NCBI GenBank assembly: GCA_018667335.1 | Contig: JABIVD010000029.1 | Location: 91,381-155,380, forward strand | Source: Rhodospirillaceae bacterium | GTDB taxonomy: Bacteria; Pseudomonadota; Alphaproteobacteria; UBA6615 | DNA length: 64,000 bases | Reading direction: 5' to 3' | In this document: piece after piece, positions 501-51,342 of the stretch | Position numbering within the stretch: the first letter of the stretch is position 1 | Layout: every line of letters begins with the position of its first letter | The notes under the pieces: model-generated | The model's input: only the letters and a program-made list of their open reading frames with translations | Databases searched by the model: none | What the model was told of the DNA's origin: nothing | Made by a program: the position numbers and the translations under genes

Positions 501-597
501 CTGATTTTCTTTCAATGCCTTTGCTATCGCGCTCCCAGCCCACGTGAGCCGGGAACATGACACCTGCGAGGCCAATGCTCGGAAGTAGGAAGTGAAT

Positions 598-1197: not shown

Positions 1198-1206
1198 GCA
1201 GCACCC

Positions 1207-2863: not shown

Positions 2864-2921
2864 TTCCTGCTCCTGAGTATGAATTCGTTCCCGACCTTGC
2901 CAGCGTAGCGAAAACGCTGAC

Positions 2922-3470
2922 ATGATCTTGATCATGTCTTCCGAGATTTTTAATTTACTGCGATCGTCGGGCGGTTCCCGGCGTACGCTCAATCCGGGTG
3001 CGCATCTTTTCCACCTTGGAGAGCCCGTTCGTCGACTCCACCTGGTGCTTTCGGGTGAAGTGCATCTTGTTCGATTCGATGAGACCGGCGGCTCCGTCAT
3101 ACTGCAACGAACGCGGCCCGGTGACGTTGTCGCAGAAGCGTCTCTGTTCGCAAAAACCTATCACTGCGACGCCGTCGCGAAGGATGCCGCAACTGTCCAG
3201 AGCATCCCACGGAGCGCGTTACGAAAGCGGCTGCGCGAAGAACCGGATATCGCGGAAGCCTTTATGGCCCATCTGGCGCACGAAGTTCAGAACACACGCT
3301 TTCGCGCTGAGATGCTTTCGCTCAGAACCATCGAAGCTAGACTGGGGGCATGGGAAAGCTGGTATGGCGATATACCCCCAAAAGGCGAATGGAAAAATCT
3401 CTCACAGCAGATCGGCGTGAGCCCGGAGGCGCTGTACAGGGCGTTGGCAAAGCGGAAGAGCGGGGGCTGA
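2922..3470 (+). CDS. Crp/Fnr-family transcriptional regulator (short form)
   Basis: cNMP-binding beta-roll HLFHLGEPVRRLHLVLSGEVHLVRFDETGGSVILQRTRPGDVVAEASLF. C-terminal HTH LSQQIGVSPEALYRALAKRK. Alternative ATG at 2934. Confidence 0.7.
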   Translation: MILIMSSEIFNLLRSSGGSRRTLNPGAHLFHLGEPVRRLHLVLSGEVHLVRFDETGGSVILQRTRPGDVVAEASLFAKTYHCDAVAKDAATVQSIPRSALRKRLREEPDIAEAFMAHLAHEVQNTRFRAEMLSLRTIEARLGAWESWYGDIPPKGEWKNLSQQIGVSPEALYRALAKRKSGG

Positions 3471-3498
3471 AATTTTCCGCGGAACGCGCGAAAGAAAC

Positions 3499-3756
3499 TC
3501 AGACCGCGATTCGATTGTAGATGCGCGCCACCAGCCAGACGACCAGGCCCGACAGCACGGACCAGAGCACCAGCCCGCCGATGAAATTGGCAAAGGTCAG
3601 GGACCACTGGAACGCCGCAAGCTCCGCATGAACCATGTAACCCGTCATCCTGAGCGTCGCCCCGGGGATGAGCGCGACCAGCGCGCTGCAGATAACCCAA
3701 AGAAGCCCGAACGTGATGGCTGTGGAGAGGGCCAGTTTATTTGCATTGAGGTTCAT
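3499..3756 (-). CDS. small integral membrane protein (2-3 TM), unknown function
   Basis: 85-aa ORF with hydrophobic segments LALSTAITFGLLWVICSALVALI and FIGGLVLWSVLSGLVVWLVA. Confidence 0.4.
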   Translation of the reverse strand: MNLNANKLALSTAITFGLLWVICSALVALIPGATLRMTGYMVHAELAAFQWSLTFANFIGGLVLWSVLSGLVVWLVARIYNRIAV

Positions 3757-4241
3757 TTTTTATCTCCGGTAAGAGTTCTGATACGTGAATCGAAAGCCTG
3801 AGCACCGCGGGTGCGGCAGGAATCGCAGCATATGGACATCGCGATCTGCATCGTCGCGTCGCGACGGCTCACTCGTTCAACAGGACCAATACCTTCCTGG
3901 CATCAGATCGTTTTGGGCAGCAACTCCGCTCGGTCGGTCGCTTCACGGATGTTCGAATGACCGGCCCCGTGTTTTGCCGGTCATGCCAACCGAAGAACCG
4001 AAACTAGTCCTTCCAGCAGATGGAGGGTCAAGGAGGATCGCGACCCGGCGATCGCTTTCTCTGGTCGGTCGGTACGCCGGAAACATTCTTCGCCGCGAAA
4101 CGCGAAGCGAGATGGCCCTGCGTATAATATTGGGTGCGCTTTTGTCACGCGCGCGCGCGGTGGTAGAAGCGGAGGAAGAAAGTTCCGCCAACCAGTTGCC
4201 GCTGAAACAGCAATAATCGGCGACAGCCAAGAGCCCGAAGC

Positions 4242-18934: not shown

Positions 18935-19972
18935 ATGAAGGTCTCGGCCGGACGCGTCGCTGGTTTTGTCGCAAACCCGGATCCGGGCATCTCTGCCATA
19001 CTGGTATATGGCCCCAATGCCGGGCTCGTACGCGAGTATTGCAATAGCCTGGCCCGCCAGATCCTGGATGACCCGTCGGATCCATTCCGGGCCGCGGAAC
19101 TTACCGGGGCGGCAATTGCGGACACCCCGACCCGGCTGGCCGACGAATTGCTCGCCCTTTCATTCGGCGGCGACCGGCGCCTCGTGACCGTCCGCGATGG
19201 GGCGGACGGGCTGACCAAAAGTCTCGAAAGCGCATTGGATGCCGGCGCGGAGGCGGACATGAACGCCGTTGCGTTGATCGAGGCGGGCGCACTCACAGGC
19301 CGGTCCAGCCTGCGGAAACTCTGCGAAAAACGTGACGATTGCGCCGCCCTGCCCTGTTACGCCGACGACGAAGAGGCGCGCGCAAGGCTTGCCCGGGGTT
19401 TGTTGTCGGAGGCCGGTATCGGCATCGATTCCGATGTGCTGCGGACCCTCACCGGGTTTCTCGGCGACGACCGGCTCTCCAACCGGCGCGAGATTGAGAA
19501 ACTGGTCCTGTTTGTCGGCCCCGAACAAACGGCCAAGGAGGCCGACGTTCTTGCCGCCGTGGGGGATATCGGGGCAACGACCCTGGACGATACGGTGTTC
19601 GCCGCGGCGGGCGGCGATATCGGACAACTCGACCGGGCCATCGAGCGATTTTGGGCCGAGGGCGGAGAGCCGATAGGTCTGATCCGCGCCACCCAGCGTC
19701 ATTTCCAGCGGCTCCATCGGGTCGCGGGACAGATGGAATCCGGGATCCGCTATGAGGAGGCAGCGAAGAAGCTGCGGCCGCCGGTGTTCTGGAAACAATC
19801 GGGACCGTTCCAGCACCAGGCGCGCAACTGGTCACGTGGCCAGCTGGAACTTGCCCTCGCGCGTCTCGGCGAGGCCGAACTGGTGCTCAAGACAACCGGA
19901 GTACCGTCTCATGCGGCGTGCGGCCGCACGCTCTACGCCATCGCCAGCATGCGACGCTCAAGACCGACATAA
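18935..19972 (+). CDS. holA: DNA polymerase III delta subunit
   Basis: N-terminus MKVSAGRVAGFVANPDPGISAILVYGPNAGLV typical of HolA. Overlaps the lptE stop. Confidence 0.85.
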   Translation: MKVSAGRVAGFVANPDPGISAILVYGPNAGLVREYCNSLARQILDDPSDPFRAAELTGAAIADTPTRLADELLALSFGGDRRLVTVRDGADGLTKSLESALDAGAEADMNAVALIEAGALTGRSSLRKLCEKRDDCAALPCYADDEEARARLARGLLSEAGIGIDSDVLRTLTGFLGDDRLSNRREIEKLVLFVGPEQTAKEADVLAAVGDIGATTLDDTVFAAAGGDIGQLDRAIERFWAEGGEPIGLIRATQRHFQRLHRVAGQMESGIRYEEAAKKLRPPVFWKQSGPFQHQARNWSRGQLELALARLGEAELVLKTTGVPSHAACGRTLYAIASMRRSRPT

Positions 19973-19986
19973 GTCATTGTAATATA

Positions 19987-20937
19987 TTATTTATTGGTTT
20001 TTTCGGGGATTCCGATCCCGTCGTTCCCCGGGGACGCGCCGGCCTCAGGACGGCCGTTACGATTCAACCGCCGAAGAACGTCATCGAGTTGATCAAACGA
20101 CTTGAATTCGATCGCCAGGACGCCCTGGCCTGAACTTTCGTCACCGCGTGCGTTGATCGACACCTTCAGGCCGAGAACATCCGACAGGTCGCGCTCAAGT
20201 GCGAGCGTATCCGTACTTTTCTCGGGCTTATTCTTCTTCGATGCCTTGCGTCCACCGGATTTGCTAACCCGCCCCTCGATATCCCGGACAGTCATTCCGT
20301 CGCGGGCGATCTGTCGGGCAAGGGCCACAGCGTCTTCACGCCCCACGAGTGCCCGCGCATGACCGGCGGTCAACTCGCCGCGGTCAATCATCTGCCGAAC
20401 CTCGTCGGGCAGGGTCAGCAAACGCAACAAATTGGCGATATGGCTGCGGCTTTTGCCCATGGCCTTGGCCAGCGCATCCTGCGTGTGGGAGAAATGATCC
20501 ATCAGCCGTTGATAGCCCTCGGCCTCCTCGATCGGCGAGAGGTCCTCACGCTGGATATTCTCGATCAGGGCGACTTCGAGCGCCGCCTGATCGTCGAGCT
20601 CGCGGATTATGACCGGGACTTCGTGCAATTTCGCACGCTGTGCGGCACGCCAGCGCCGTTCCCCGGCGATAATTTCATACAGATCCGCCTGCACGGGATC
20701 GCGCCGGACGAGAATGGGCTGGAGGATACCCTTCTCGCGCACGGACTCGACGAGCGATGCGAGTTCGGCCTCGTCGAAATTCGTCCGCGGCTGGAACCGG
20801 CCGGGGTGGAGTTGCTCGATCGGCAGCTCACGCGCCGGCCTGGCCTTGTCCAGTTCCTGATAGTCTTCGCTGTCGTCCCCCAGGAGGGCCGACAGACCGC
20901 GGCCGAGGCGGGGCCTTGAGGTGGGCTCGCTCATTCG
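19987..20937 (-). CDS. parB: chromosome-partitioning protein ParB
   Basis: ParB box LVESVREKGILQPILVR. HTH region. N-terminus MSEPTSRPRLGRGLSALL. The start overlaps the parA stop. Confidence 0.9.
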   Translation of the reverse strand, partial: RMSEPTSRPRLGRGLSALLGDDSEDYQELDKARPARELPIEQLHPGRFQPRTNFDEAELASLVESVREKGILQPILVRRDPVQADLYEIIAGERRWRAAQRAKLHEVPVIIRELDDQAALEVALIENIQREDLSPIEEAEGYQRLMDHFSHTQDALAKAMGKSRSHIANLLRLLTLPDEVRQMIDRGELTAGHARALVGREDAVALARQIARDGMTVRDIEGRVSKSGGRKASKKNKPEKSTDTLALERDLSDVLGLKVSINARGDESSGQGVLAIEFKSFDQLDDVLRRLNRNGRPEAGASPGNDGIGIPEKTNK

Positions 20938-21818
20938 GCTGCCTCCCCGATCGGCCCGACGCCCTCGCGGCGCAGGAGTTCGGCCGCAAGCCGGGCATAG
21001 GCCTGGGCGCCGGAACATGCCAGGTCGTAGACCAGGGCCGGCTTGCCGTAGGACGGCGCCTCGGACAGACGCACGTTGCGCGGGATGACGGTCTTGTAGA
21101 CCCGGTCGTGGAAATGCGCCCGGACATCGGCCTCGACCGAGCGGCAGAGGTTGTTCCGGCTGTCATACATGGTCAGTACGATGCCCTGAATGTTCAGGTT
21201 CTCGTTGTAGGCCCGGCGAATGCGTTCGATCGATTTCATCAGCCGCGTCATGCCCTCGAGTGCGAAATACTCGCACTGCAGGGGTACGAGGACTGAATCA
21301 GCTGCGACGAGGGCATTGATGGTGAGCAGGCCGAGAGCGGGCGGACAGTCGATCAACACATAGTCATACCGGCCGAGGACCGGGGCGAGTGTTTCGCGCA
21401 GGCGCGCCTCGCGATGCGGGATATCGATCAACTCTATTTCAGCGCCGGCAAGATCCGCGGATGCCGGCGCGACTTCGAGACCCGGAATCTCCGTCCGGCA
21501 GATCACGTCGTCAAACCGGCCGCCACCGATCAGCACATCATACACATCTGTTTCATAATCTGAAACACCGAGGCCAGTGGACGCATTTCCCTGGGGGTCG
21601 AGATCGACCACGAGGACGCTTTGCCCGCATGCGGCCAATCCGGTCGCGAGGTTGATCGCGGTCGTGGTCTTGCCGACACCGCCCTTCTGGTTCGCAACGG
21701 CAATCGTGCGCGTTCCCCGCGCGCGGGCCGGGCCTTCGGGCTTGAACGGCCCGGTGGCTGGTCGATCGTTGGCAGGGCGGTCGATGTCGGGACGGTCGGT
21801 GATGGTGTGATCAGACAC
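20931..21818 (-). CDS. parA: chromosome-partitioning ATPase ParA
   Basis: Deviant Walker A IAVANQKGGVGKTTT. GTG start at 21818 overlapping the rsmG stop. Confidence 0.9.
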   Translation of the reverse strand: MSDHTITDRPDIDRPANDRPATGPFKPEGPARARGTRTIAVANQKGGVGKTTTAINLATGLAACGQSVLVVDLDPQGNASTGLGVSDYETDVYDVLIGGGRFDDVICRTEIPGLEVAPASADLAGAEIELIDIPHREARLRETLAPVLGRYDYVLIDCPPALGLLTINALVAADSVLVPLQCEYFALEGMTRLMKSIERIRRAYNENLNIQGIVLTMYDSRNNLCRSVEADVRAHFHDRVYKTVIPRNVRLSEAPSYGKPALVYDLACSGAQAYARLAAELLRREGVGPIGEAAE

Positions 21819-22488
21819 GTGTCAGATTCCCTATCTTGAGCACCGTGCCATCCGGATCGGACAGGCTTTGATGCTGCTCCACTTGCATATTCCAGAATTC
21901 AGCCGCGTCGGTCAATTCGCCATCGACCCGCGCGCCCTTGAGAAAAAGGCAAAATCCATTGGATTTCATCAGACCGGACGCATGGCCGAGGAGGTCCGGG
22001 AGCGGCGCAAGGGCCCGCGCCACGACGACATCGAAGGCTCCGCCCGCCATTTCGGAAGTGTCCAGGGCTTCGATCCGGCTCTCGGCTATCTCCGCGCGCG
22101 CATCCGTCAGGCGGCGGACTTCGCGGAGGAACGCACATTTCCGGGCATCCGATTCCGCCAGCACCACCGTGGCACCGGTTATGATGGACAGGACGAGACC
22201 GGGAAATCCCGCACCGCTGCCCATGTCCAGGATCCGCATGTCCGGCGACACCCAGCGGGCGAGCTGGACGGAATCCAGGAAATGCCGGCGCCAGAGATCA
22301 TCGAGGGATTTGTTGGAGACCAGATTGATGCGCGGCTGCCAGGTCCGCAGCGTCTCGGCGTAGACCTCGAGCCGGCCGAATGTTTGCTGGTCGAATGTTT
22401 GCCGGCCGAATGTTTCACGTGAAACATTCGCGAGGTCAGCCGCCAGATCGGCAAACCCGTCGCGCGACAAAGGGACCTCAATATTCAT
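21811..22488 (-). CDS. rsmG: 16S rRNA m7G527 methyltransferase RsmG (GidB)
   Basis: SAM motif ILDMGSGAGFPGLVLSI. Order gidA-gidB-parA-parB. Confidence 0.9.
   Translation of the reverse strand: MNIEVPLSRDGFADLAADLANVSRETFGRQTFDQQTFGRLEVYAETLRTWQPRINLVSNKSLDDLWRRHFLDSVQLARWVSPDMRILDMGSGAGFPGLVLSIITGATVVLAESDARKCAFLREVRRLTDARAEIAESRIEALDTSEMAGGAFDVVVARALAPLPDLLGHASGLMKSNGFCLFLKGARVDGELTDAAEFWNMQVEQHQSLSDPDGTVLKIGNLTRV
22371..22429. repeat. direct repeats of the parS half-site (gccggccgaatgttt x2, tcgaatgttt) immediately upstream of parS 1
   Basis: gccggccgaatgttt at 22371-22385 and 22401-22415; tcgaatgttt at 22391-22400. Encodes the repeated QTFG peptide in the RsmG N-terminus. Confidence 0.5.
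22411..22426. promoter_or_regulatory. parS: parS centromere site 1 (TGTTTCACGTGAAACA), inside the rsmG 5' coding region
   Basis: Perfect match to the canonical 16-bp parS palindrome. The palindrome extends to 22 bp (22408-22429). Confidence 0.85.
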
Positions 22489-22540
22489 GCGCCCCCTATA
22501 CCAAGGATAGGGTTTCGCACCAACCCCTATATATAGTGTA

Positions 22541-24433
22541 TCAGGCGGCCTTGCGGGCGCGCTTCACGTGCCGGAGCAGAACCACGAGCGCCGCCGGCGT
22601 CACGCCGGGGATGCGGCCGGCCTGCCCCAGGGTCTCGGGACGCAGCCGCCCGAGTTTCTCGGAGATCTCGTTCGAGAGCCCGGGCACAGAGCCGTATTCG
22701 AAGTCGGCCGGCAGTATGAGTGCCTCGTCACGCTGGTACGCCGCCACATCCGCGGCCTGGCGCTCGAGATAGCGTGCATACTTCGCTTCGATCTCCATGG
22801 TCGCGCGGACCGGCGCCGCGATCGCCGCGAGCTCGGGCCACACGCCGACGGCCGTGTCGAAGCCCGTATCGGGCATCGACAGCAGGTCGAACGCGGTTCT
22901 GCGGACCCCGTCCTGGTTGATCCGAACCCCGTGCCGGGCAAGGGCGTTCGGTGTTGCGTTGACAGATTCGAGAAGGTCGCGAGCCGCGGCCAGAGCCGTT
23001 GCCTTCGCCTCGAACGCGGCCGACCGATCCGGCCCGACGCAGCCGAGATCGACCCCGTGGCGGGTCAGGCGCTGGTCCGCATTGTCGGCCCGAAGCAGGA
23101 GTCGATACTCGGCGCGCGATGTAAACATCCGGTAGGGCTCGTCCGCGCCACGGGTCACCAGGTCGTCGATCATGACCCCGATGTAGGATTGCGCGCGATT
23201 CGGCTGGAGCCGTTTCGTGCCGCCGGAGGCTTTCTGGGCTGCGTTAATTCCGGCCACCAGACCCTGCCCCGCGGCCTCCTCATATCCGGTAGTGCCATTG
23301 ATCTGACCCGCCAGGAACAGCCCGGGAATCCGCCTCGTTTCCAAAGTAGTGCCTAATTCTCGCGGATCCACGAAATCATATTCGATGGCGTAACCGGGAC
23401 GTAGTACCGCCGCGTTCTCGAGCCCCGGAATGAGTTTCAACATCGCCAGCTGGACGTCTTCCGGCAGCGATGTGGAGATCCCGTTCGGGTAGACCGTGTC
23501 GTCGTCCAGGCCTTCGGGCTCGAGGAAAATTTGGTGGCGCTGCTTGTCGGCGAAACGAACGACCTTGTCCTCGATCGAGGGGCAGTATCTCGGGCCGCCA
23601 CTCTCGATCTGTCCTGAATAGATCGGCGCCCGGTCGAGATTGGCCCGGATCAGGTCATGGGCCTCGGGCGTGGTGTGGGTGATGTGGCAATCGATCTGCG
23701 GCGTGGTGATCGCCTCGGTCATGTAGGAGAACGGCACCGGCGGCGTATCGCCGGGCTGCCGGTCGAGACCACTCCAGTCGATTGTCCGTCCGTCGAGGCG
23801 CGGCGGAGTCCCGGTTTTCAGGCGCCCGAGCGCGAAACCGGCGGCCTCCAGGGTCTTGGACAGGCCCATCGACGGCGCCTCGCCGAACCGGCCGGCGGGA
23901 ACCTGGGTCTCGCCGATGTGGATGACGCCGCGCAGGAAGGTGCCGGTGGTCAGAACCACACACCCGGCCGCGATCATACGCCCGTCTGACAGGACCACGC
24001 CGGACACCCGACCCTCCCCGTCAAGGGTGAGATCGTCGACGCCGGCGCCGAGAATATCGAGATTGTCCTGCTCGGCCAGAAGATCCTGTATTGCCTGACG
24101 GTAGAGCTTCCGGTCCGCCTGGGCGCGCGGGCCCCAAACAGCCGGGCCCTTCGTGCGATTGAGCATCCGGAACTGGATCCCGCCCCGATCGATGGCGCGG
24201 CCCATGATCCCGTCGAGCGCATCGATCTCGCGCACCAGATGGCCCTTGCCGAGCCCGCCGATCGCGGGATTGCAGGACATCTCGCCGATGGTCTCGAGCT
24301 TGTGGGTCACCAGGAGCGTGGCTGCGCCGACCCGGGCGGAAGCCGCCGCGGCCTCGCAGCCGGCATGGCCGCCGCCGATGACGATCACATCATAGGTCTC
24401 GGGACCATCTTTTGCTGAATCCGGGGTGTTCAT
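22541..24433 (-). CDS. mnmG: tRNA uridine-5-carboxymethylaminomethyl modification enzyme MnmG (GidA)
   Basis: FAD motif [16 protein letters not shown]. About 630 aa. Start ATG at 24433 ([18 protein letters not shown]); the ORF track extends to 24511. Confidence 0.92.
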
Positions 24434-24511
24434 CGCGCGCGCTGTGTAGGCCCTGTTGTCGTACCTGTCAAAGTACCATGCGTATGACTGATCGAAGTCC
24501 CGGAAATCCAA

Positions 24512-24527
24512 TGTTTCACGTGAAACA
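24512..24527. promoter_or_regulatory. parS: parS centromere site 2 (TGTTTCACGTGAAACA) between mnmE and mnmG
   Basis: Second perfect 16-bp parS palindrome (ccaATGTTTCACGTGAAACATTc). Confidence 0.85.
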
Positions 24528-24545
24528 TTCGTCTAGGCAAGACGC

Positions 24546-25889
24546 TTACTTCCCAATACAGAAGTCACGAAAGACGGTGTCGAGTATGTCGTCGATATCG
24601 ACCCGGCCGGTGATCCTGCCAAGCGCCCGGAGCGCGACACGCACGTCCTCGGCGGCGAGTTCCGGGTATGCCGCGTCGGGTACATGCGCCAGCGCCGTGC
24701 TCGCCTCGCCCAACGCATCGCGATGACGCCGGCGGGTCGGCAACGGCGCTTCAGACGCCCCCAGGCGGTCGTGCACCTCGCCGGTCAGTCTGTCGAGCAA
24801 ACCATCGAGCCCGTCGCCGGTCTCCGCAGATACGAGTATCGGCACGATCCCTTCCGGAAGACCCGGCGCGGCGTATTTCCCCCTCAGCAGATCGGCTTTG
24901 TTCACCACCACCAGGCAATCACCGGCGATCAGCGCACGGACCTTCTCCGGCAAGGTACCGTCGGTCGCGTCGAGCACCACGAGCCTCAGGGCCGCATCCT
25001 CAGCCCGTTGCTCGGCACGCCGCACACCCTCGGCCTCAATCGCATCAGAAGCCTCGCGTATCCCCGCCGTATCGGAGAGCGTCACGGCGAAGCCACCGAG
25101 ATTGAGCTGGACCTCGATGACGTCGCGGGTGGTCCCCGCGGTTTCCGACACGATCGCCGCCTCACGTTGCGCCAAGTGATTGATAATACTGGACTTTCCG
25201 ACGTTCGGCGCGCCCAGGATCACGATCGGAAAACCGCTACGTATGTGCTCGCCGCGATCCGCACCTACTATATGTTGTGTGATCTCAGCATTCAGCACTG
25301 CGATGCGTTCCTCGGTCGCGGCCCTCATCCCATCCGGCAACTCCTCGTCGGAGAAGTCGATTTCCGCCTCGGCATGGCCCATCAAGTCGATCAGGCGGGC
25401 CCGCCACCCCTCATAGAGATCGGCCAGCACCCCATCATACTGGCGCAGCGCCAGTCGCCTCTGGGCGTCCGTCTGGGCCGCCACGAGGTCTGCCAGCCCC
25501 TCGGCGGCCGTCAGGTCGAGCTTGCCGTTCTCGAAGGCGCGGCGGGTGAAATCGCCCGGTTCGGCATGCCGCGCCAGGCCGGTCCCGGAAATCGCATCGA
25601 ACACCGCGGCGAGGACCGCGCGACCGCCATGCACATGGAGTTCGGCCACGTCCTCGCCGGTGAAACTGTTCGGGGCCGGAAATCTCAGGACCAACGCCTG
25701 ATCGAGGACTGCGCCGCCCGGCCCGGAAGTCAATTTGTGCAGCGCAACATAACGCGCCTCGGGAAGCACCGGGACGCCAAGTGCGGTCAGGACCGCATCG
25801 GCATTCGGGCCCGAAACACGCACGACCGAGACGCCGGCGAGGCCGGCGCCGCTCGACAGCGCGTAGATGGTGTCTGCAGGCGATACCAC
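24546..25889 (-). CDS. mnmE: tRNA modification GTPase MnmE (TrmE)
   Basis: G1 motif GAPNVGKSS. TTRD. C-terminal CIGK. N-terminus IYALSSGAG. Confidence 0.92.
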   Translation of the reverse strand: MVSPADTIYALSSGAGLAGVSVVRVSGPNADAVLTALGVPVLPEARYVALHKLTSGPGGAVLDQALVLRFPAPNSFTGEDVAELHVHGGRAVLAAVFDAISGTGLARHAEPGDFTRRAFENGKLDLTAAEGLADLVAAQTDAQRRLALRQYDGVLADLYEGWRARLIDLMGHAEAEIDFSDEELPDGMRAATEERIAVLNAEITQHIVGADRGEHIRSGFPIVILGAPNVGKSSIINHLAQREAAIVSETAGTTRDVIEVQLNLGGFAVTLSDTAGIREASDAIEAEGVRRAEQRAEDAALRLVVLDATDGTLPEKVRALIAGDCLVVVNKADLLRGKYAAPGLPEGIVPILVSAETGDGLDGLLDRLTGEVHDRLGASEAPLPTRRRHRDALGEASTALAHVPDAAYPELAAEDVRVALRALGRITGRVDIDDILDTVFRDFCIGK

Positions 25890-28306: not shown

Positions 28307-28794
28307 CCAAGGCGTGCATCCTGGAGTCTCCCGTCGGCCGCATCCGGGTCACGGAATCCAAAGGCGCGGTCACCGAGCTGAGCTGGACGGATGCCCGCGC
28401 CACACCACCATCGACGCAAGTCCTCCGGGACGCCGCCGATCAGCTGGCGGAATACTTCGCCGGGCGGCTGACCGCATTCGTATTGCCCCTCGCACCCGAG
28501 GGCACCGAACATCAGAAGAAGGTCTGGACGGCGATGACCGAGATCCCGTCGGGCGCCCTGCGCACCTATGGCGATCTCGCCCGCGAGATCGGCTCATCGG
28601 CCCGCGCTGTGGGTACCGCCTGCGGCAAGAACCCGATCCCGATCATCGTGCCGTGCCACCGCATCGTGGCGACAGGCGGCGGCATCGGCGGCTATTCCGG
28701 GCGCGGCGGGGTCGAGACCAAGCGCCAACTGCTCAATCTGGAAGGCGTTAATCTCGGCGGCCCCAATCTTGAAGGCGATTTGTTCAGCCGATAG
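28303..28794 (+). CDS. ogt: methylated-DNA--protein-cysteine methyltransferase
   Basis: Active-site IIVPCHRIV. HTH YGDLAREIG. Overlaps the yyaL stop. Confidence 0.85.
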
Positions 28795-28841
28795 GCTCGG
28801 CCCAACACATACATAACGAAGCATTTCTCGGGGGAAGACAC

Positions 28842-29816
28842 ATGGTCCACGCAATCCGTTTTCATGAGGCCGGCGGGCCGGAAGTGATGAAGTGGGAAGA
28901 GGTCGAGGTCGGCGATCCCGGCCCCGGCGAGATCCGGGTCAGGCACACCGCGGCCGGCCTCAACTTCATCGACATCTACCTGCGCTCGGGCGCACGCCCG
29001 GTGCCGATGCCGAACGGGCTGGGCCTCGAGGGTGCCGGAGAGATCATCGCCGTCGGCGACGGGGTGAGCGACCTGGCCGTCGGCGACCGGGTCGGCTATG
29101 CCGACCTGCCGCTGGGGGCCTATTCCGAGGAGCGGGTGATGCCGGCGAAGATCGCCGTCAAACTCCCCGACAACATCTCCGACGAGCAGGCCGCCGGGAT
29201 GATGCTCAAGGGCATGACCGTGCAGTTCCTGATCAAGTCCTGCTTCCCGGTCGCACCGGGCTCGACCGTGCTGTGGCATGCCGCGGCCGGCGGCGTCGGC
29301 CTGATCGCCTGCCAGTGGCTCAACCATCTGGGGGTGACCGTCATCGGCACCGTCGGTTCGGAAGAGAAGGCCGAGCTGGCACGCGCCCATGGCTGCCACC
29401 ACACGATCAATTACAACGAAGAGGACTTCGTCGAGCGGGTGACCGAGATTACCGACGGCGCGGGCGTGTCGGTGGTCTATGACAGCGTCGGCAAGGACAC
29501 GCTCAGGGGTTCGATGAAATGCCTGCAGCGGCGCGGCTACCTGATCACCTTCGGCAACGCATCGGGTGCGCCCGAGCCGGTGGCGCCGGGCGAGCTGTCG
29601 GAGCATGGCTCGATCTACCTGGCCCGGCCGATGCTGTTCGACTTCACCGCCGACCGCGACGAGCTGCTGGCCTGCGCCGGCGACCTGTTCGACGTCGTGT
29701 CATCGGGTGCCGTGAAGATCGAGATCAACCAGCGCTACCCCCTGTCGGAGACGGTCCAGGCGCATATCGACCTGGTCGGCCGCAAGACGACAGGCTCGAC
29801 GATCTTGATGGCGTAG
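28842..29816 (+). CDS. qor: NADPH:quinone oxidoreductase (zinc-free MDR family)
   Basis: GPEVMKWEEVEVGDPGPGEIRVRHTAAGLNFIDIY. Nucleotide-binding AAGGVGLIACQWL. Confidence 0.85.
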   Translation: MVHAIRFHEAGGPEVMKWEEVEVGDPGPGEIRVRHTAAGLNFIDIYLRSGARPVPMPNGLGLEGAGEIIAVGDGVSDLAVGDRVGYADLPLGAYSEERVMPAKIAVKLPDNISDEQAAGMMLKGMTVQFLIKSCFPVAPGSTVLWHAAAGGVGLIACQWLNHLGVTVIGTVGSEEKAELARAHGCHHTINYNEEDFVERVTEITDGAGVSVVYDSVGKDTLRGSMKCLQRRGYLITFGNASGAPEPVAPGELSEHGSIYLARPMLFDFTADRDELLACAGDLFDVVSSGAVKIEINQRYPLSETVQAHIDLVGRKTTGSTILMA

Positions 29817-29826
29817 GGCCGCCGAT

Positions 29827-29853
29827 CGTCATACGCGGACTTGATCCGCGTCT
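29827..29853. repeat. hairpin repeat type B (GTCATACGCGGACTTGATCCGCGTCTC)
   Basis: Stem GCGCGGA/TCCGCGC. Family also at 45919, 46333, 47454. Confidence 0.7.
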
Positions 29854-29868
29854 CTCACAAAGACCGAG

Positions 29869-29899
29869 ACAAGATGCCCGGATCAAGTCCGGGCATGAC
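29869..29899. repeat. hairpin repeat type A (AGATGCCCGGATCAAGTCCGGGCATGACG)
   Basis: Stem GCCCGGA/TCCGGGC. Family also at 45856, 46270, 46376, 47392. Confidence 0.7.
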
Positions 29900-29920
29900 G
29901 ATTGTTGAAAGTGTGGAGTC

Positions 29921-30021
29921 TTACCCCTCATCCTGATGAGGGCCGCAAGGCTCATCTCGAAGGATAGGGTGATCGCTTCATGCTTCGAGACGGTGCTGCG
30001 CGCCTCCTCAGCATGAGGGGT
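29921..30021. repeat. about 100-bp element bounded by imperfect terminal inverted repeats (TACCCCTCATCCTGA ... TCAGCATGAGGGGTA), internal hairpins; MITE-like or structured RNA
   Basis: The left end is itself a hairpin (cctcatc-ct-gatgagg). Internal IR catctcgaag/cttcgagacg. Sits between convergent qor and rho. Confidence 0.4.
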
Positions 30022-30030
30022 AGCGGGAAT

Positions 30031-30060
30031 GCAAAAGGGCGGGTTTGAAACCCGCCCCTA
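30031..30060 (-). terminator. rho 3' terminator hairpin (GGGCGGGTTTCAAACCCGCCC + TTTTG on the minus-strand transcript)
   Basis: 7-bp GC stem followed by a T-run on the rho strand. An identical 27-bp copy is at 46472-46499. Confidence 0.6.
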
Positions 30061-30084
30061 CGCTATTCGATCTGGCTTCGATGC

Positions 30085-31341
30085 TTACTGGTTCATGGTG
30101 TCGTAGAAGTCGTCGTTGTTCTTGGTCGACTTCATCTTGCCGAGCAGGAACTCCATACCGTCCACGACCCCCATGGGGCTGAGGATGCGGCGCAGGACCC
30201 ACATCTTCGACAAGGCGTCCTTGTCGACCAGCAGCTCTTCTTTGCGCGTGCCCGACTTGGTGATGTCGATCGACGGCCAGACCCGCTTGTCCGACAGCTT
30301 CCGGTCGAGGACGATTTCCGAGTTACCGGTGCCCTTGAACTCTTCGAAGATGACCTCGTCCATACGCGAGCCGGTCTCGATCAGCGCGGTCGAGATGATC
30401 GTCAGCGAGCCGCCTTCTTCAATGTTACGGGCCGCGCCGAAGAAACGCTTCGGACGCTGCAGGGCGTTGGCGTCCACGCCGCCGGTCAGCACCTTGCCCG
30501 AGGACGGGACGACGGTGTTGTAGGCGCGGGCGAGGCGGGTGATCGAATCCAGCAGGATGACCACGTCGTGCTTATGCTCGACCAGGCGCTTGGCCTTGGA
30601 GATCACCATCTCGGCGACCTGCACATGGCGTGTGGCCGGCTCATCGAACGTCGAGGAGATCACCTCACCGCGCACCGTGCGCTGCATGTCGGTCACTTCC
30701 TCGGGCCGCTCGTCGATCAGCAAGACGATCAGATAGACCTCGGGATGATTGGCCATGATCGCCTTGGCGATGTTCTGCATCATCACGGTCTTGCCCGTGC
30801 GCGGCGGTGCGACCAGCAGCGCGCGCTGGCCCATGCCGAGCGGTGCCACCATGTCGATGACGCGGGTCGAGGGATCCTTCATCTCGGGATCATCGATCTC
30901 CAGCTTGATCTTCCGGTCGGGATAGAGCGGGGTCAGGTTGTCGAAGTTGACGCGGTGACGGGTGTGATCCACATCGTCGAAATTGACCTGGGCGACCTTG
31001 ACCAGCGCGAAGTAACGCTCGCCATCCTTGGGAGAGCGGATTTCGCCCTCGACCGTGTCGCCCGTGCGCAACGCGAAGCGGCGCACCTGGCTGGGTGAGA
31101 CATAGATATCGTCGGGACCCGGCAGAAAGTTCGATTCCGGCGAGCGCAGGAAGCCGAAGCCGTCCTGTAGCACTTCCAGAACACCGATGCCCGAGATCGG
31201 CACCTCGTCCTCTGCCAGTTCCTTGAGGATCGCGAACATCATGTCCTGGGTGCGAAGGTTGCTCGCCCCCTCGATCTCGAGTTCCTCGGCAAAGCTGAGG
31301 AGATCAGCCGCGGATTTGTCTTTCAGGTCTTGGAGTTTCAT
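30085..31341 (-). CDS. rho: transcription termination factor Rho
   Basis: N-terminus [41 protein letters not shown]. Walker A and RNA-binding domain. ORF track start 31386; ATG 31341 has a GGAAG SD; alternative ATG at 31350. Confidence 0.93.
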
Positions 31342-31603
31342 TGCTTCCATGGGGAGGCCAATTCTGTTTGGAAACCTACGCGCCACAACGGCTGGGAACC
31401 GCGTTTTCGGGGGCGTTGGTGATTGTCAGCGGAAGTTCGTGGTCGCCGACGGGAAACGCCGGAAGAAAACGACTTATGCGGAAGGGAGTGCGTGCGATGA
31501 GGACTGTCTTGTGCGCGCGCCGTTATTACGCACTTAGTGAGCGTGCCGCGTCAAGTCAATCCTCGCGACGGAAATGCTGCGGCAAAAACCCGGGGCCAAA
31601 AAC

Positions 31604-32053
31604 CTAGAACGGACGGGCGATAATCATCACCACGATCACGATCATCAGAACCGTCGGCACCTCGTTGGCGAGCCGGTAGGTCTTCGCGGGCCGGGTGTTT
31701 GCGTCGGCGGCGAAATCCTTCATCCATTTCGCGAACACATGATGGGCGACTGTCATCGCCGTCACCGCGGCCAGCTTGATCCAGATCCAGCCCGAACCCC
31801 AGTCCACGATCCCGGGCGTGCCCAGCATCAGGCCACCAAAAATGAACGCCGCGATCATCGCCGGGTTCATGATCGCGCGCAGCAGGCGCCGCTCCATGAT
31901 CTTGAAGGTCTCGGACTTGTCCGACCCCACCTCCGCGTCGGCGTGATAGACGAACAGGCGCGGCAGATAGAGCATCCCGGCCATCCAGGAGATCACCGCG
32001 ATCACATGGAGCGACTTGAACCAGGGATAGGCCGCAATCAGGAAATCACCCAT
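31604..32053 (-). CDS. hemJ: protoporphyrinogen IX oxidase HemJ (UPF0093)
   Basis: WFKSLHVIAVISWMAGMLYLPRLFVYHA is the conserved HemJ N-terminal motif. 4 TM. Adjacent to hemH-hemE. Confidence 0.8.
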   Translation of the reverse strand: MGDFLIAAYPWFKSLHVIAVISWMAGMLYLPRLFVYHADAEVGSDKSETFKIMERRLLRAIMNPAMIAAFIFGGLMLGTPGIVDWGSGWIWIKLAAVTAMTVAHHVFAKWMKDFAADANTRPAKTYRLANEVPTVLMIVIVVMIIARPF

Positions 32054-32059
32054 GGTTCA

Positions 32060-33124
32060 TCATCCGGTTTGTACCGCAGCTGGCATAGGGCATTTCGACC
32101 ATTCACCAGAACAGACGCGACCGCCGTTGCCGCTGCAGATATCGCAGCCCGCCGCGATGTTGCCGCGCACCAGATCGGCGAGCCCGGCGATGAACTTCGG
32201 GGCGGTGCCCACGGTCTGCACGCGAATATATTCAGGCACGCCCGCCCCCTCGGCCAGCGCACGATACTCGATATCGAGCTCGACCAGCGTCTCGGAATGC
32301 TCCGACACAAATGCGATGGGCACGATAATCACAGATTTCCCGTCCGCCCCGGCACGGGCGATTTCATCATCGGTCGACGGCCCGATCCATTCCAGCGGAC
32401 CGACCCGGCTCTGATAACAGCACAACCAGTCGAGCTCCTGTCCCAGGCTTTCCATCGCTGGATTGTTCATCACCGCGGCTGCCGTCTGTTCGACTTGGGA
32501 CTGGTACGGGTCGCCGCCCTCGACGATCTGCTTGGGGAGTCCATGGGCAGAGAACAAAATTCTTACATCTTTGGTTACACGTGTGCCCGCTTCCAGCGCG
32601 TCGGCCAGCAGATCCGTCACCGCACCGATGAAGCCCGAATCGGTCGGGTAACAGCACAGCGCCGTGACGGGAATGTCGAGCTTGCGTTTGCGTGCCACGC
32701 GCTCCCAGATCCGCATCATCGACCCGACCGTGGTGGTCGAGAATTGCGGATAAAGCGGCAGCAAGACGATGCGCTCAGGCGCACTCGCGATCACCTCGTC
32801 CATGACCGCATCGCACATGGGATGCCAGTAGCGCATGGCGACGAAGCATTTGAAATCTTCCCCGCCGCCCGTGTTCAGTACGGCCTCAAGCGCATCCGCC
32901 TGGGCGCGCGTGTTGGCGAGCAGGGGCGAACCGCCGCCGATATGGGCGTAGATCTCCTGCGCAATGGGCGCCCGGCGGCGCGAGATCAATTGTGCCAGAG
33001 CCCAGCGGATCGGTGCCGGCGCGCCGATGATCATCGGGTCGTTGAACAGGTTGAACAGGAACGGCCGGACATCATCGGGCCCGTCAGGACCGCCAAGATT
33101 GTAGAGGACGACGGCGGTTGTCAT
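32060..33124 (-). CDS. hemH: ferrochelatase with Cys-rich C-terminal extension (putative [2Fe-2S])
   Basis: MTTAVVLYNLGGPDGPDDVRPFLFNLFNDP N-terminal signature. C-terminal CDICSGNGGRVCSGEWSKC. ATG at 33122-33124. Confidence 0.9.
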   Translation of the reverse strand: MTTAVVLYNLGGPDGPDDVRPFLFNLFNDPMIIGAPAPIRWALAQLISRRRAPIAQEIYAHIGGGSPLLANTRAQADALEAVLNTGGGEDFKCFVAMRYWHPMCDAVMDEVIASAPERIVLLPLYPQFSTTTVGSMMRIWERVARKRKLDIPVTALCCYPTDSGFIGAVTDLLADALEAGTRVTKDVRILFSAHGLPKQIVEGGDPYQSQVEQTAAAVMNNPAMESLGQELDWLCCYQSRVGPLEWIGPSTDDEIARAGADGKSVIIVPIAFVSEHSETLVELDIEYRALAEGAGVPEYIRVQTVGTAPKFIAGLADLVRGNIAAGCDICSGNGGRVCSGEWSKCPMPAAVQTG

Positions 33125-33134
33125 GGCTTGTCGG

Positions 33135-34184
33135 TCATCCGGCGGGCGTCCATTCACGAACGATCTCGGCGAGCCGCTCGACATGTTCGAACGGCGTATC
33201 CTTGTTGATGCCGTGGGCCAGGTTGAACACGAACGGGCCCCCACCGAGCGCGTCCAGGATTTCCCGCGCGGCGCGCTCCATCTCATCACCGCCGACCATC
33301 AGATAGGCCGGATCGAGATTGCCCTGCACGGGACAGATCGGCTGAATCCTGCTGGCGGCTTCGCCGGCGGTCATCGATGCATCGAGGCCGACGGCATCGA
33401 TCCCGGTCGCGCGGATATATCCCTCGAGGCGCTCACCGATCCCGCGGGCAAAACCGATGATCGGGATATCGGGCGCGCGCGCCTTCACCCCCGCCACGAT
33501 GCGCGCGGTCGGCGAGATCACCCACGCATCGAAGTCGTTTGCCGGCACGGCACCCGCCCAGGTGTCGAACAGCTGCAGCGCCTGGGCGCCAGCCTCGACC
33601 TGGGCCACGAGATAGGCGGTCGTGGATTCCACCAGGATATCCATCAGCGATGCGAAATCCGCGCGGTCACGAACGGCCCAGCTTTTGACCGCGTTGAAGT
33701 CGCGGCTCGAGCCCCCCTCGACCATGTAGGTCGCGACCGTCCACGGCGCGCCGGCAAACCCGATCAGCGCCACATCATCGGGAAGTTCTTCGCGGACCCG
33801 CGCGACCGTCTCGAACACCGGTGCCAGATGACCGAGGGTTTTCCCGGGATCGAGCTTCGCCAGATCCGCGCCGTTCGTCACCGGGGTGAGGACCGGCCCG
33901 GTCCCCTCGACAAACCCGACCTCCTGGCCAATCGCATCGGGGATCACCAGAATATCCGAGAACAGGATCGCCGCGTCGGGCCGGAACCGATCGATCGGTT
34001 GCAGGGTTACCCTGGCGGCGCGTTCCGGGGTGTAGCAGAGATCCAGAAAACCGGAGGCCTGGGCCCGAATTTCCCGGTATTCCGGGAGATATCGGCCGGC
34101 CTGGCGCATGAACCAGAATGGTGGGCGGCCACCGGTTTTACTGGCCGGATTGCTGGACAGGGCATCGAGGAACAAGTTGGACAC
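33135..34184 (-). CDS. hemE: uroporphyrinogen decarboxylase
   Basis: PPFWFMRQAGRYLPEYREIR N-terminal signature. 349 aa. Confidence 0.92.
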   Translation of the reverse strand: MSNLFLDALSSNPASKTGGRPPFWFMRQAGRYLPEYREIRAQASGFLDLCYTPERAARVTLQPIDRFRPDAAILFSDILVIPDAIGQEVGFVEGTGPVLTPVTNGADLAKLDPGKTLGHLAPVFETVARVREELPDDVALIGFAGAPWTVATYMVEGGSSRDFNAVKSWAVRDRADFASLMDILVESTTAYLVAQVEAGAQALQLFDTWAGAVPANDFDAWVISPTARIVAGVKARAPDIPIIGFARGIGERLEGYIRATGIDAVGLDASMTAGEAASRIQPICPVQGNLDPAYLMVGGDEMERAAREILDALGGGPFVFNLAHGINKDTPFEHVERLAEIVREWTPAG

Positions 34185-34659
34185 GGTTGGAAAACTGACG
34201 TTTGGGTTGGCGGTCTGCGGTCGGAAAGACAGGTTTCTGACGGGGCTGAATGAGGCCTGACTATGCCGATCAGGTTGTCCCTGCGCATCCTAAATAATAG
34301 TAGTTGAACGTAGTGAAATTTGAACTGTAGTTGTAGATGTGCGGTGAATCCGAGGGATAAGTCTTCGTTCACGAATTCGTACAGAACGGCGACCAGCTGT
34401 GCACGAACGAACGGACGCTTTGTTCGTAAATCTCCTAGACCGTTGATCCGCAATATATTCGTGCCGGGCCGGCTTGTGGATCACCTTGGTCCAGCGACTG
34501 GATGGCTGGTTCCGCCAGCGGATGCATACCGGCTGTTGGAAACTTTGTCCTCCGTGGGATGACAGGGGGGTGTACGAACGGCATAAGGTTGATGAAATAT
34601 TTCGCGCAGGGAGAAGTCGCTACTTATCCCCGTTGTCATTGTATTCGCTCCCAGCCCAG
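34185..34659. other. oriC: candidate chromosomal replication origin (oriC; hemE | ori | DUF299 synteny as in Caulobacter Cori)
   Basis: 475-bp non-coding gap. DnaA-box-like TGTGGATCA (34475-34483, reverse complement of the Caulobacter G-box TGATCCACA) and TGATCCGCA (34444-34452). TTATCC cores at 34355-34360 (reverse complement) and 34624-34629. 50-bp AT-rich stretch at 34291-34340. Confidence 0.55.
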
Positions 34660-35523
34660 ATGGTGCCGCTGATGGCCGAAACCGAAGACGTCTTCCACCT
34701 TCACCTGGTCTCGGATTCCACCGGTGAGACGATCCGGTCGGTCTCGCGGGCCTGCCTGGCCCAGTTCTCGGAAACGCAGTCGGTCGAGCATTTCTGGCCG
34801 ATGGCGCGGACACCGAAGGCGATGGAGTTGGTGCTCGAGGAGATCCACGAGAACCCCGGCCCGGTGATCTTCACCCTGGTGAACGACAATTTGTGTGAGC
34901 AGCTTGTTCGGGGCTGCCGGTTGCGCAAGGTGCCGTGTATTTCCGTGCTCGATCCGGTCATTGCCGCGGTCGGCAACTATCTGGGCCAGCAGCCGACCCA
35001 CCGCATCGGCGGGCAGCATGAGCTCGACGAGGCCTATTTCGCGCGGATCGAGGCGATGGACTGGTCGCTCACCCATGATGACGGGCAGCGGACCGAGGAG
35101 CTGAACGGCTCGGATATCGTGCTGGTTGGGGTGTCGCGCACCTCGAAGACGCCGACCTGCCTGTATCTGGCGAACCGGGGGATCAAGGCCGCAAATGTGC
35201 CCTACGTGCCCGGTGTGCCGCTCCCCGATATTCTCGAACAACTGACCAATCCGCTGGTGATCGGGTTGACCAACGATCCAAAGCGCCTGGTTGAGCTGCG
35301 CCGGGCGCGGCTGACGTCGCTGCACGAGCACCAGGAGACCGATTATGTCGACCCCGAGGTCGTGCGCGCGGAAATCACCCAGGCGCGGCGCTATTTTGCC
35401 CGCAACAACTGGCCCGTCATCGACGTGACCCGGCGTTCGATCGAGGAAACGTCCGCCGCGATCATGAATGTCTACAATCGCCGGCTCGAAGAGGCCGAAA
35501 AGAGCGATGATGCCGCCGGCTGA
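34660..35523 (+). CDS. pyruvate,phosphate dikinase regulatory protein-like kinase/pyrophosphorylase (DUF299; RP001 homologue)
   Basis: MVPLMAETEDVFHLHLVSDSTGET. P-loop GVSRTSKTPTCLYLA. ORF track begins at 34474; ATG at 34660 (alternative 34672). Confidence 0.85.
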   Translation: MVPLMAETEDVFHLHLVSDSTGETIRSVSRACLAQFSETQSVEHFWPMARTPKAMELVLEEIHENPGPVIFTLVNDNLCEQLVRGCRLRKVPCISVLDPVIAAVGNYLGQQPTHRIGGQHELDEAYFARIEAMDWSLTHDDGQRTEELNGSDIVLVGVSRTSKTPTCLYLANRGIKAANVPYVPGVPLPDILEQLTNPLVIGLTNDPKRLVELRRARLTSLHEHQETDYVDPEVVRAEITQARRYFARNNWPVIDVTRRSIEETSAAIMNVYNRRLEEAEKSDDAAG

Positions 35524-49542: not shown

Positions 49543-50505
49543 TCAGGCGTGGATTTCGAGGAGAAAGGAGAAGGGCGTGTTGTAGCCGCCGGCCTCGATC
49601 TCGTTCGCGCCAATGTGAAGCGGGATCACATTGCGCGGTTCGTCGAGGCCGATCCGCTCGCCGTTGACCACGGTGCCGAGCTGGCTGCCGGCGTCGCGGA
49701 TCATCAGGCCTGGCCGCCCGAGCTCGATCAGGAAATGGTTCCGCGAGAGGTTGTAGGGCCGTTCGTCGGGAAACTGGAGGACGATGTCGGTCCGCGGGGT
49801 CTGCTCACCGCGCTTGGGCTTGCGGCCGACGCCGAACGGCGTCTCGTTGATCTTGACGCCGCGCCGGGGCATGCCGCTGCGGGTCGCGTCGCTGGCCGGC
49901 TTGAGCCAGATCGTGGACCAGCTGCCCATCTCGGCGACATCGCCGGCATGTGTGGCCTTGCGTGTGCGCTTTCCGGTGATGGAGACGACATTGGAGTCGG
50001 CTTCGCGCAGGAGCTGATCGAGGGGTGATTCGGTGTCTGAATCTACGCGTGACACCATTCCTGCGTCAGTTCCTGATTCAATTCCTGATTCAATTCCTGA
50101 TTCTGCGTCTGGCACCAGCGTCAGGCCTGCGAGCAACTGGGTCGCCGCCCTTCGCACCATGTCCGGGTGTCGCGCCAACTCCGCCGCGACGGTGCCCCGA
50201 TCCACCATGACGGCCTCGACAGGCCCGGCGGCGATGGCGCTCAGATCCTGTCGTCCGCCGAACAGCAGGCTCGCTGCGCCGATCACGTCGCCCTGGCGTG
50301 CGTCCCCCAGCAGAGTGCCGGTTGCGTTGCGCAGCTCGACGCGGCCCGTGACAATCACGAAACCCGCGTCCGGGTCCTCGCCGGCGCGGAGCAGAAAATC
50401 CTGATCGGAAAAGACGCGGGTGCGTCCGGGTAAGGTGTTCATGAGCAAGCAAGTAATGAAGTGGACGAATTGACGTATGATGCCGAAGTTCGCCTGATCC
50501 GCCAA
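49543..50505 (-). CDS. cyclic-nucleotide-binding domain + FHA domain fusion protein
   Basis: N-terminal cNMP-binding fold (FLLRAGEDPDAGFVIVTGRVEL...GDVIGAASLL). ESGIESGIESG linker. C-terminal FHA signature (YNLSRNHFLIELGRPGLMIRDAGSQLGTVVNGERI). TTG start at 50505 per ORF track; alternative ATG at 50442. Confidence 0.7.
   Translation of the reverse strand: MADQANFGIIRQFVHFITCLLMNTLPGRTRVFSDQDFLLRAGEDPDAGFVIVTGRVELRNATGTLLGDARQGDVIGAASLLFGGRQDLSAIAAGPVEAVMVDRGTVAAELARHPDMVRRAATQLLAGLTLVPDAESGIESGIESGTDAGMVSRVDSDTESPLDQLLREADSNVVSITGKRTRKATHAGDVAEMGSWSTIWLKPASDATRSGMPRRGVKINETPFGVGRKPKRGEQTPRTDIVLQFPDERPYNLSRNHFLIELGRPGLMIRDAGSQLGTVVNGERIGLDEPRNVIPLHIGANEIEAGGYNTPFSFLLEIHA
50069..50104. repeat. 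12-bp tandem repeat x3 (attcctgattca) encoding the ESGI linker
   Basis: Seen in sequence; in-frame, within the coding region. Confidence 0.5.
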
Positions 50506-51252: not shown

Positions 51253-51342
51253 GTTTGGGATTAAGCTGGAATTAAGCTGGGACCAAGCCAAGACCAAACA
51301 GGTCGCTGGTTGGCCTCGTAGCCCTACGGCAAGTTGTACGCG

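Follow-up and report, generated by a model that had tools for sequence, protein, structure and literature searches.

A probable DnaA-dependent chromosomal origin of replication in the hemE-DUF299 gap of an uncultured marine Rhodospirillaceae-like alphaproteobacterium

The window, that is, the whole 64-kb stretch of DNA here analysed, contains at positions 34185-34659 a gap of 475 bp whose A+T content of 48% exceeds the ~36% of the window as a whole, and which is the candidate oriC of this study. On its left the gap is bounded by hemE (33135-34184, minus strand; TIGR01464, 1.2e-115), encoding uroporphyrinogen decarboxylase, and on its right by a gene of the DUF299/PpsR-like family (COG1806, yqfL; 34660-35523, plus strand; NF003742, 5e-96), both genes being transcribed away from it. 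The start of the DUF299 gene was set at the ATG at 34660, the N-terminus of the product aligning with its relatives from residue 1. Scans against NCBIfam placed rho, hemJ, and hemH beyond hemE, and maf, aroE, coaE, and dnaQ beyond DUF299, confirming the order hemJ-hemH-hemE / 475-bp gap / DUF299-maf-aroE-coaE-dnaQ advanced in an earlier interpretation of the bare letters (hereafter, the sequence-only reading). In its full extent, the cluster reads parB-parA-rsmG-mnmG-mnmE...rho-hemJ-hemH-hemE / gap / DUF299-maf-aroE-coaE-dnaQ-secB, the genes from parB to mnmE occupying 19987-25889 to the left of the hemE side, while Pfam searches added leuS, a weak match to holA, a DUF255 thioredoxin-like gene, and secB to the annotation of the window.

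Two perfect parS sites, TGTTTCACGTGAAACA, were found in the window, where 0.11 would be expected. The first one, at 22411-22426, lies inside rsmG at ~12 kb from the gap, and the second one, at 24512-24527, between mnmG and mnmE at ~9.7 kb from it, in agreement with the previous proposal that parAB, rsmG, mnmG, and mnmE, together with parS sites, are found some 10-14 kb away. The DnaA signature motif is absent from all six frames of the 64-kb window, as also anticipated by the sequence-only reading, which had placed dnaA outside it.

Origins with these same boundaries have been described. The origin of Caulobacter crescentus, Cori, was experimentally mapped between hemE and duf299 (PMC6393856, PMC1914354), the predicted Rickettsia origin shares the boundary genes hemE and COG1806 (PMC1914354), and the yqfL-hemE interval holds the chromosomal oriC of Azospirillum, whose two parS sites are 9.9 and 11.8 kb off, nearly the same layout as in the window (bioRxiv 10.64898/2026.09.14.751567, a 2026 preprint). 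The gap thus occupies the location that characterizes the hemE-adjacent class of origins, namely between hemE and COG1806 within the conserved cluster. A different reading of the same locus would be that the gap is only the divergent promoter and regulatory region of hemE and DUF299, perhaps with DnaA acting on it as a transcription factor, the origin being elsewhere, for example beside dnaA. The absence of dnaA from the window is in line with this view, as is the fact that AT richness and conservation are usual in divergent promoter regions; on the contrary, the perfect parS sites at ~10-12 kb and a gene order equal to that of alphaproteobacterial origins mapped or predicted at a place not adjacent to dnaA (PMC6393856, PMC1914354, bioRxiv 10.64898/2026.09.14.751567), argue for more than a regulatory role.

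A scan for DUF299 proteins, with one genome kept per species, provided 59 loci for comparison. The closest ones, showing 79-93% identity in the DUF299 protein, belong to marine metagenome-assembled genomes assigned to "Rhodospirillaceae" or "Alphaproteobacteria", while the remaining ones, with 50-60% identity, come from Rhodospirillales-like lineages. The arrangement hemE / gap / DUF299 is kept in ~50 of the 59 loci, nearly always accompanied by rho, hemJ, and hemH at one end and, at the opposite end, by maf, aroE, coaE, and dnaQ, and in these ~50 genomes the orthologous gap measures 300-477 bp.

Cumulative GC skew in the 64-kb window falls from position 1, reaches its minimum at 33938, and then rises up to the window end. 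Since genes on both strands are found on either side of the gap, replication skew could be separated from coding-strand skew. Plus-strand skew on the left side was -0.016 in plus-strand genes and -0.022 in minus-strand genes, turning on the right side into +0.042 and +0.036, respectively, with third-position skew shifting by +0.10 to +0.13 within each gene-orientation class. The sign change at the gap does not depend on gene strand, an aspect that speaks against a purely regulatory gap. The switch is observed at window scale, and a skew profile of 64 kb cannot prove a global minimum, a point in favour of an origin located elsewhere. In the +/-10-kb flanks of 32 related loci, a change from negative skew at left to positive skew at right is seen in 17, a noisy signal, and minima at <=500 bp from the gap appear in 10 of the 32, the noise being too high to sharpen the position.

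The resolution of the cumulative curve of the window is ~6 kb, values within 3% of the minimum extending over 28426-34188, and the closest relatives show their local skew minimum 5-7 kb on the hemE side of the gap. Both observations would also be consistent with an origin in another non-coding stretch of the plateau at 28.4-34.2 kb, for example those between qor and rho (29817-30084) and between rho and hemJ (31387-31603). Nonetheless, these stretches, of 217-268 bp, are less AT-rich and carry no DnaA box with <=2 mismatches, the least stable DNA of the window falls outside them, and one of them sits between convergent genes, an origin elsewhere in the plateau being regarded as very improbable.

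Duplex stability profiles single out the hemE end of the 475-bp gap. The 50-mer at 34290-34339, with 70% A+T, is the least stable of the whole window, its nearest-neighbour dG being -58.0 kcal/mol vs a mean of -79.4 (sd 4.7), a deviation of ~4.6 sd, and the same place is also the least stable of the 64-kb window when stretches of 70 and 100 bp are considered. The AT-rich stretch that the sequence-only reading had pointed out at 34291-34340 coincides with it. This block, presumed to be the DNA unwinding element (DUE), shows identities of 0.78-0.83 among relatives, being conserved in both position and sequence. An AT-rich unwinding element with A+T above the genome average is characteristic of hemE-adjacent origins, and the instability of this block goes beyond that of an average promoter region, again at odds with a gap serving only for transcription. 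Immediately on its left, at 34260-34289 of the plus strand, lies a further conserved block, ACTATGCCGATCAGGTTGTCCCTGCGCATC, with an identity of 0.77 to relatives L001-L011. Its positions 34275-34283 read TTGTCCCTG in the window and TTATCCTGG in relatives. The block could represent either a DnaA box, weak and on the left-hand side, or part of the promoter of hemE.

DnaA boxes were scored against the consensus TTATCCACA. The best site is the G-box at 34475-34483 on the minus strand, TGATCCACA (plus strand TGTGGATCA), which is identical to the high-affinity G-box of Caulobacter and was correctly recognized by the sequence-only reading. Among the 13 aligned gaps, window included, TGTGGATCA is kept in 10, and its 5-nt core, GTGGA, in 12. 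The two TTATCC cores also proposed from sequence were found at 34355-34360 on the minus strand and at 34624-34629 on the plus strand. The former belongs to a DUE-proximal DnaA-box-like site at 34352-34360 on the minus strand, TTATCCCTC (plus strand GAGGGATAA), in which the core is intact and the three mismatches concentrate at positions 7-9. Its GGGATAA is conserved in relatives L001-L005 and L010, more distant relatives presenting here a box of [TC]G[TG]GGAT type, or two of them, and the site and 34622-34630 are perfect inverted repeats of each other over 9 nt. The latter core is part of the plus-strand box TTATCCCCG at 34624-34632, which has two mismatches and contains the near W-box TCCCCG. 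Throughout the 13 aligned gaps, TTAT, C445, and C447 of this box are invariant and C444 and C446 nearly so, TTATCCCC being invariant or nearly invariant in 13/13. On the other hand, the near-match box TGATCCGCA, at 34444-34452 on the plus strand, is present as the sequence-only reading had it but is not conserved in close relatives, which have TGATCTAGA, TGTTCTGGA, and similar sequences instead, and it is probably not a core origin element.

In terms of numbers, the gap has a single box with <=1 mismatch and three with <=2 mismatches. The latter compare with 0.5 expected from the window density, a count of three being reached by 1.6% of the sliding 475-bp windows. As to an enrichment in DnaA boxes, which the sequence-only reading had put forward as a check, the gap is the sole intergenic region of the window with a <=1-mismatch box, but dinucleotide-preserving shuffles of this AT-richer gap give P = 0.12 for <=2 mismatches and 0.10 for <=1. 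Cores of the type T[TG]ATCC amount to four vs 0.49 expected (P = 0.0005), a pattern that was chosen after seeing the data. As the box count is not significant by shuffling, the argument for an origin relies on conservation, stability, skew, and synteny. Other box-rich stretches exist, such as 2151-2600, but this one was discarded as a candidate, since it is distant from the skew minimum and belongs to a region of low GC that contains cytochrome c genes.

Alignment of the window with the 12 closest gaps revealed conserved blocks at 34260-34359, 34475-34484, 34535-34584, and 34622-34633, with 77-92% identity across relatives, whereas at third codon positions of hemE and DUF299 the identity between these relatives and the window drops to 43-72%, near saturation. 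These blocks contain the AT-rich element, GTTGTAGAT, the GANTC site, GGGATAA, the G-box, GTGGGATGACA, and TTATCCCC. An unbiased count of 7-mers in the 50 orthologous gaps identified TGTGGAT (32/50) and CGGGGAT (30/50) as the most widely shared ones, both being DnaA-box cores in one orientation. Even where gaps no longer align, a common plan is recognizable, with an AT-rich block at the hemE end in most gaps, up to three boxes (at least one) oriented as TGTGGAT within ~15-25 bp of it, and another box in this orientation usually ~130-150 bp further.

That DnaA-box cores are the top shared words of 50 orthologous gaps is a further point against a gap that is only a divergent promoter region. A promoter candidate does occur in the gap: a sigma-70-like match at 34452-34480 on the minus strand, with a -35 TCCACA inside the G-box, a 17-nt spacer, and a -10 TATATT (9/12 consensus matches), whose AATATATTCGTG part is conserved and which points towards hemE through the AT-rich block. 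Its overlap with the G-box, together with the non-significant box count in shuffles of the gap, is in line with the regulatory reading. Considering however the conserved cores, the strand-independent skew switch, the exceptional instability of the AT-rich block, and the parS sites and gene order, it is unlikely that the gap has only a transcriptional function. The hemE promoter of Caulobacter is itself needed for replication (PMC6393856), and by analogy the promoter candidate of the window could play a similar role.

Between the AT-rich block and the nearest box, the plus strand carries GTTGTAGAT at 34330-34338, made up of the TAG/TTG repeats GTAGTTGTAGATG and nearly invariant in alignment A1. 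In the orthologous gaps, all 19 occurrences of GTTGTAG are on this strand, the motif being ~15-fold enriched over flanks. These features recall the basal unwinding system (BUS) described for B. subtilis and many other bacteria, which consists of a DnaA box, a spacer, and (NAN)x3 trios (PMC8287927). Similarities include the AT-rich block, the TAG-containing repeats, the 15-nt spacer, and a box on the same strand in the TGTGGATAA orientation, as well as the tandem boxes found at the DUE-proximal spot in more distant relatives. The formal rule was applied by demanding a box with <=2 mismatches, a 0-16 nt spacer, and >=3 consecutive NAN trios, on the 5'-tail strand and beside the AT-rich region, the orientation of box and trios being derived from E. 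coli oriC and from the '5'-tail' statement in PMC8287927. The DUE-proximal box at 34352-34360 does not comply with this rule, because the repeats alternate TAG and TTG, so that three consecutive NAN trios are not formed, and because the box itself has three mismatches. Formal (NAN)x3 hits on the minus strand beside the boxes at 34444 and 34624 were rejected as low-information runs, probably due to chance. Among the 50 gaps, plus-strand hits, in which the trios lie hemE-proximal to the box, occur in 16, a borderline value when compared with shuffles (mean 7.6, maximum 16).

In the 3' half of the gap, a highly conserved block, GTTGGAAACTTTGTCC..GTGGGATGACAGGGG..CGAACGGCAT, spans 34535-34584 with an identity of 0.85. 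It comprises GTGGGATGA at 34554-34562 (minus strand TCATCCCAC), with a DnaA-box-like ATCC core, and GGGATGAC, which with 19 of the 50 orthologous gaps is the most widely shared 8-mer. The block may hold weak DnaA sites and/or the DUF299 promoter. An RNA element was also considered for it and rejected, the covariation term being +1.5 and only 2 of 20 pairs being compensated; this lack of compensatory base changes indicates that RNA is not the explanation of its conservation. Neither did an Rfam search of the gap produce any family at E <= 1. Short repeats of ACGAAC type, at 34367-34427 and 34570-34581, are only partly conserved in relatives.

No CtrA site of the form TTAA-N7-TTAA was detected in the gap, either with one mismatch or as TTWW-N7-TTWW, and not one TTAA occurs in it, so that the lack of CtrA boxes claimed by the sequence-only reading holds under relaxed rules too. 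Likewise, consensus searches on both strands for IHF sites in the gap matched neither WATCAANNNNTTR nor WATCAN5WTR. The gap consequently lacks both features of the CtrA-regulated origin subtype, its CtrA sites and its IHF site, and repression by CtrA in the Caulobacter manner is not expected here. From the missing CtrA boxes, the sequence-only reading had suggested that regulation may differ from that of Caulobacter; nonetheless, CtrA sites have not been seen in other alphaproteobacterial origins, with Rickettsia as a possible exception (PMC4468827), their absence being normal outside Caulobacter and thus expected here rather than a peculiarity. A strict Caulobacter-type origin, with CtrA repressing at sites that overlap DnaA boxes and IHF assisting, would account for the flanking genes and the G-box sequence shared with Cori (PMC4285127), but it is contradicted by the sequence of the gap and by the reported lack of CtrA sites in other alphaproteobacterial origins (PMC4468827), and is extremely unlikely.

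GANTC, the motif that the CcrM methyltransferase targets, occurs only once in the gap, as GAATC at 34346-34350. Relatives keep it as GAATC or GAGTC, variation being restricted to the N position, and GANTC density in the orthologous gaps (5.0 per kb) is above that in flanks (1.7 per kb). Intergenic enrichment in GANTC is general in alphaproteobacteria. The comparison being with flanks only, this density is not countable as an origin-specific signal. A more ambitious proposal would combine the GTTGTAG repeat, of 6-nt period, and the conserved GANTC into a variant single-stranded DNA element for DnaA, with GTTGTAG replacing the consecutive NAN trios and GANTC situated between the unwinding element and the degenerate TTATCC box, which would allow methylation-timed initiation without CtrA in the marine clade and in several more distant Rhodospirillales-like lineages. 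Such a variant is conceivable, albeit doubtful.

Among known origins, the gap can be set against Cori (hemE to duf299/CCNA_00001), with which it shares the boundary genes, the wider cluster, a size of ~400-475 bp, the AT-rich element, a G-box of moderate affinity with the same sequence, TGATCCACA, weaker boxes with C-rich 3' halves, the presence of GANTC, and a promoter candidate directed to hemE within the origin. The Caulobacter G-box and W-box are reported as TGATCCACA and TCCCCA, respectively (PMC4285127). On the contrary, Cori has five CtrA sites where the gap has none, five GANTC sites vs one, and two G-boxes vs one; besides, no IHF consensus is present here, the exact W-box TCCCCA is absent, TCCCCG being the nearest sequence, and there is no obvious extension of the origin into the DUF299 coding sequence.

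The oriC of Azospirillum baldaniorum Sp245, an Ori-Finder/DoriC prediction compared here by its published description, comes from the same Rhodospirillales-like order-level group and agrees with the gap in its flanking genes, in having several DnaA boxes of mixed orientation, and in the neighbourhood of parAB, ~12 kb off, and of two 16-nt palindromic parS sites at 9.9 and 11.8 kb (9.7 and 12 kb here). It differs in its six reported boxes, versus 3-5 candidates in the gap, three of them strongly conserved. Rickettsia prowazekii (hemE / RP001) in turn shares the hemE / COG1806 boundaries around a gap of ~384 bp, but Rickettsia is very AT-rich and CtrA and IHF sites were reported for it, while the window has 64% G+C and its gap neither of these sites.

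Synteny, the local skew switch of the window, duplex instability, and a conservation of the sequence elements above that of synonymous sites altogether support the chromosomal origin proposed by the sequence-only reading. The hemE-DUF299 gap is therefore assigned, with a probability of about 0.85, as the DnaA-dependent oriC of an uncultured marine Rhodospirillaceae-like alphaproteobacterium. It would be an ordinary origin of the hemE-adjacent type, such as those of Caulobacter, Rickettsia, and Azospirillum.

With Caulobacter, E. coli, and B. subtilis as models, a working sequence of events can be envisaged for this oriC. DnaA would bind the moderate-affinity G-box (34475-34483), the two boxes with a TTATCC core (34352-34360, 34624-34632), and possibly the site at 34554-34562. 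The box beside the AT-rich block would then direct the DnaA oligomer into this block, across the conserved GTAGTTGTAGATG repeats; since the GAGGGATAA box lies 15 nt from the TAG-containing repeats, on the strand and side proper of DnaA-trios, we infer that oligomerisation would enter 34290-34339. Melting of this 50-bp element would be followed by helicase loading and bidirectional replication, while transcription towards hemE from the promoter overlapping the G-box and methylation of the single GANTC may modulate firing.

Placing oriC at this position fixes the replichore map of an uncultured marine alphaproteobacterial lineage, and is useful for genome finishing, for peak-to-trough estimates of growth rate in metagenomes, and for the design of shuttle vectors. 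Current understanding is left unchanged by it, and the gap would also be flagged by standard origin-finding software. The orthologous gaps, for their part, constitute a comparative set in which ancestral features of Cori can be separated from Caulobacter additions: the ancestral features are the position next to hemE, an AT-rich block beside oriented boxes, and G-box-like sites, and the Caulobacter additions are the CtrA and IHF sites.

The AT-rich block of the candidate origin, in the hemE/DUF299 intergenic gap (34185-34659), is separated from the first DnaA box (34352-34360) by a GTTGTAG repeat at 34330-34338. The same repeat was found at the equivalent position, between AT-rich block and first box, in the hemE-DUF299 gaps of seven related loci (designated L015, L017, L021, L022, L039, L053 and L059). 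Across the 50 orthologous gaps it occurs exclusively on one strand, with 19 copies on the plus strand and 0 on the minus strand, and its density is ~15-fold above that of the flanks. Judged by its sequence, GTTGTAG looks like TAG trios with TTG in alternation; the repeat departs from the published (NAN)x3 rule for the DnaA-trio.

Also close to the first DnaA box lies the sole GANTC site of the gap (34346-34350), retained by the close relatives as either GAATC or GAGTC, so that the N position alone varies. Over the whole window GANTC is depleted about two-fold, 153 sites being counted versus 328 expected. The orthologous gaps carry the site at about three times the density of the flanks. Elsewhere in the window, GANTC sites follow one another at 12-nt spacing in a tandem repeat of the 12-nt unit ATTCCTGATTCA, which is present in 3.9 copies at 50057-50103, within a minus-strand gene (49543-50505) whose product has both a cyclic-nucleotide-binding and an FHA domain.

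The gap also contains a perfect 9-nt inverted repeat, GGGATAAGT / ACTTATCCC, at 34354-34362 and 34622-34630, with 259 nt between its arms. Because of this repeat, the two TTATCC boxes (34352-34360, minus, and 34624-34632, plus) have the extended sequence ACTTATCCC in common, and they are oriented toward each other across the remaining origin. A motif of the ACGAAC / GTTCGT type recurs several times, in both orientations, at 34367-34427 and 34570-34581 (GTTCACGAA, TTCGTACA, GTGCACGAACGAACGG, TTTGTTCGT and GTGTACGAACGG); conservation of these copies in relatives is only partial.

Regarding CtrA-type sites, a single exact TTAA-N7-TTAA match was detected in the whole window, at 51261-51275; it forms part of an 11-nt tandem repeat that spans 51256-51280 in a minus-strand gene. 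One match per window is the chance expectation.

In the parB neighbourhood, the stretch 19957-20026 contains the window's least stable 30-mer and ranks second least stable at 50 and 70 bp. It corresponds to the junction at which a putative holA (18935-19972, plus) and parB (19987-21018, minus) converge, and is probably a terminator region shared by both genes. Separately, a 15-nt tandem repeat, GCCGGCCGAATGTTT, present in 3 copies at 22371-22415, extends into the first parS (22411-22426), within rsmG.

Finally, the left end of the window (1-4000) shows a G+C of 0.57-0.58 versus about 0.65, together with a weak codon-position signal. It contains cytochrome c' and cytochrome c genes, as well as a minus-strand ORF (2282-3100) for which no family match was obtained, and may be an acquired segment. 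Three loose DnaA-box matches are located around 2150-2600.
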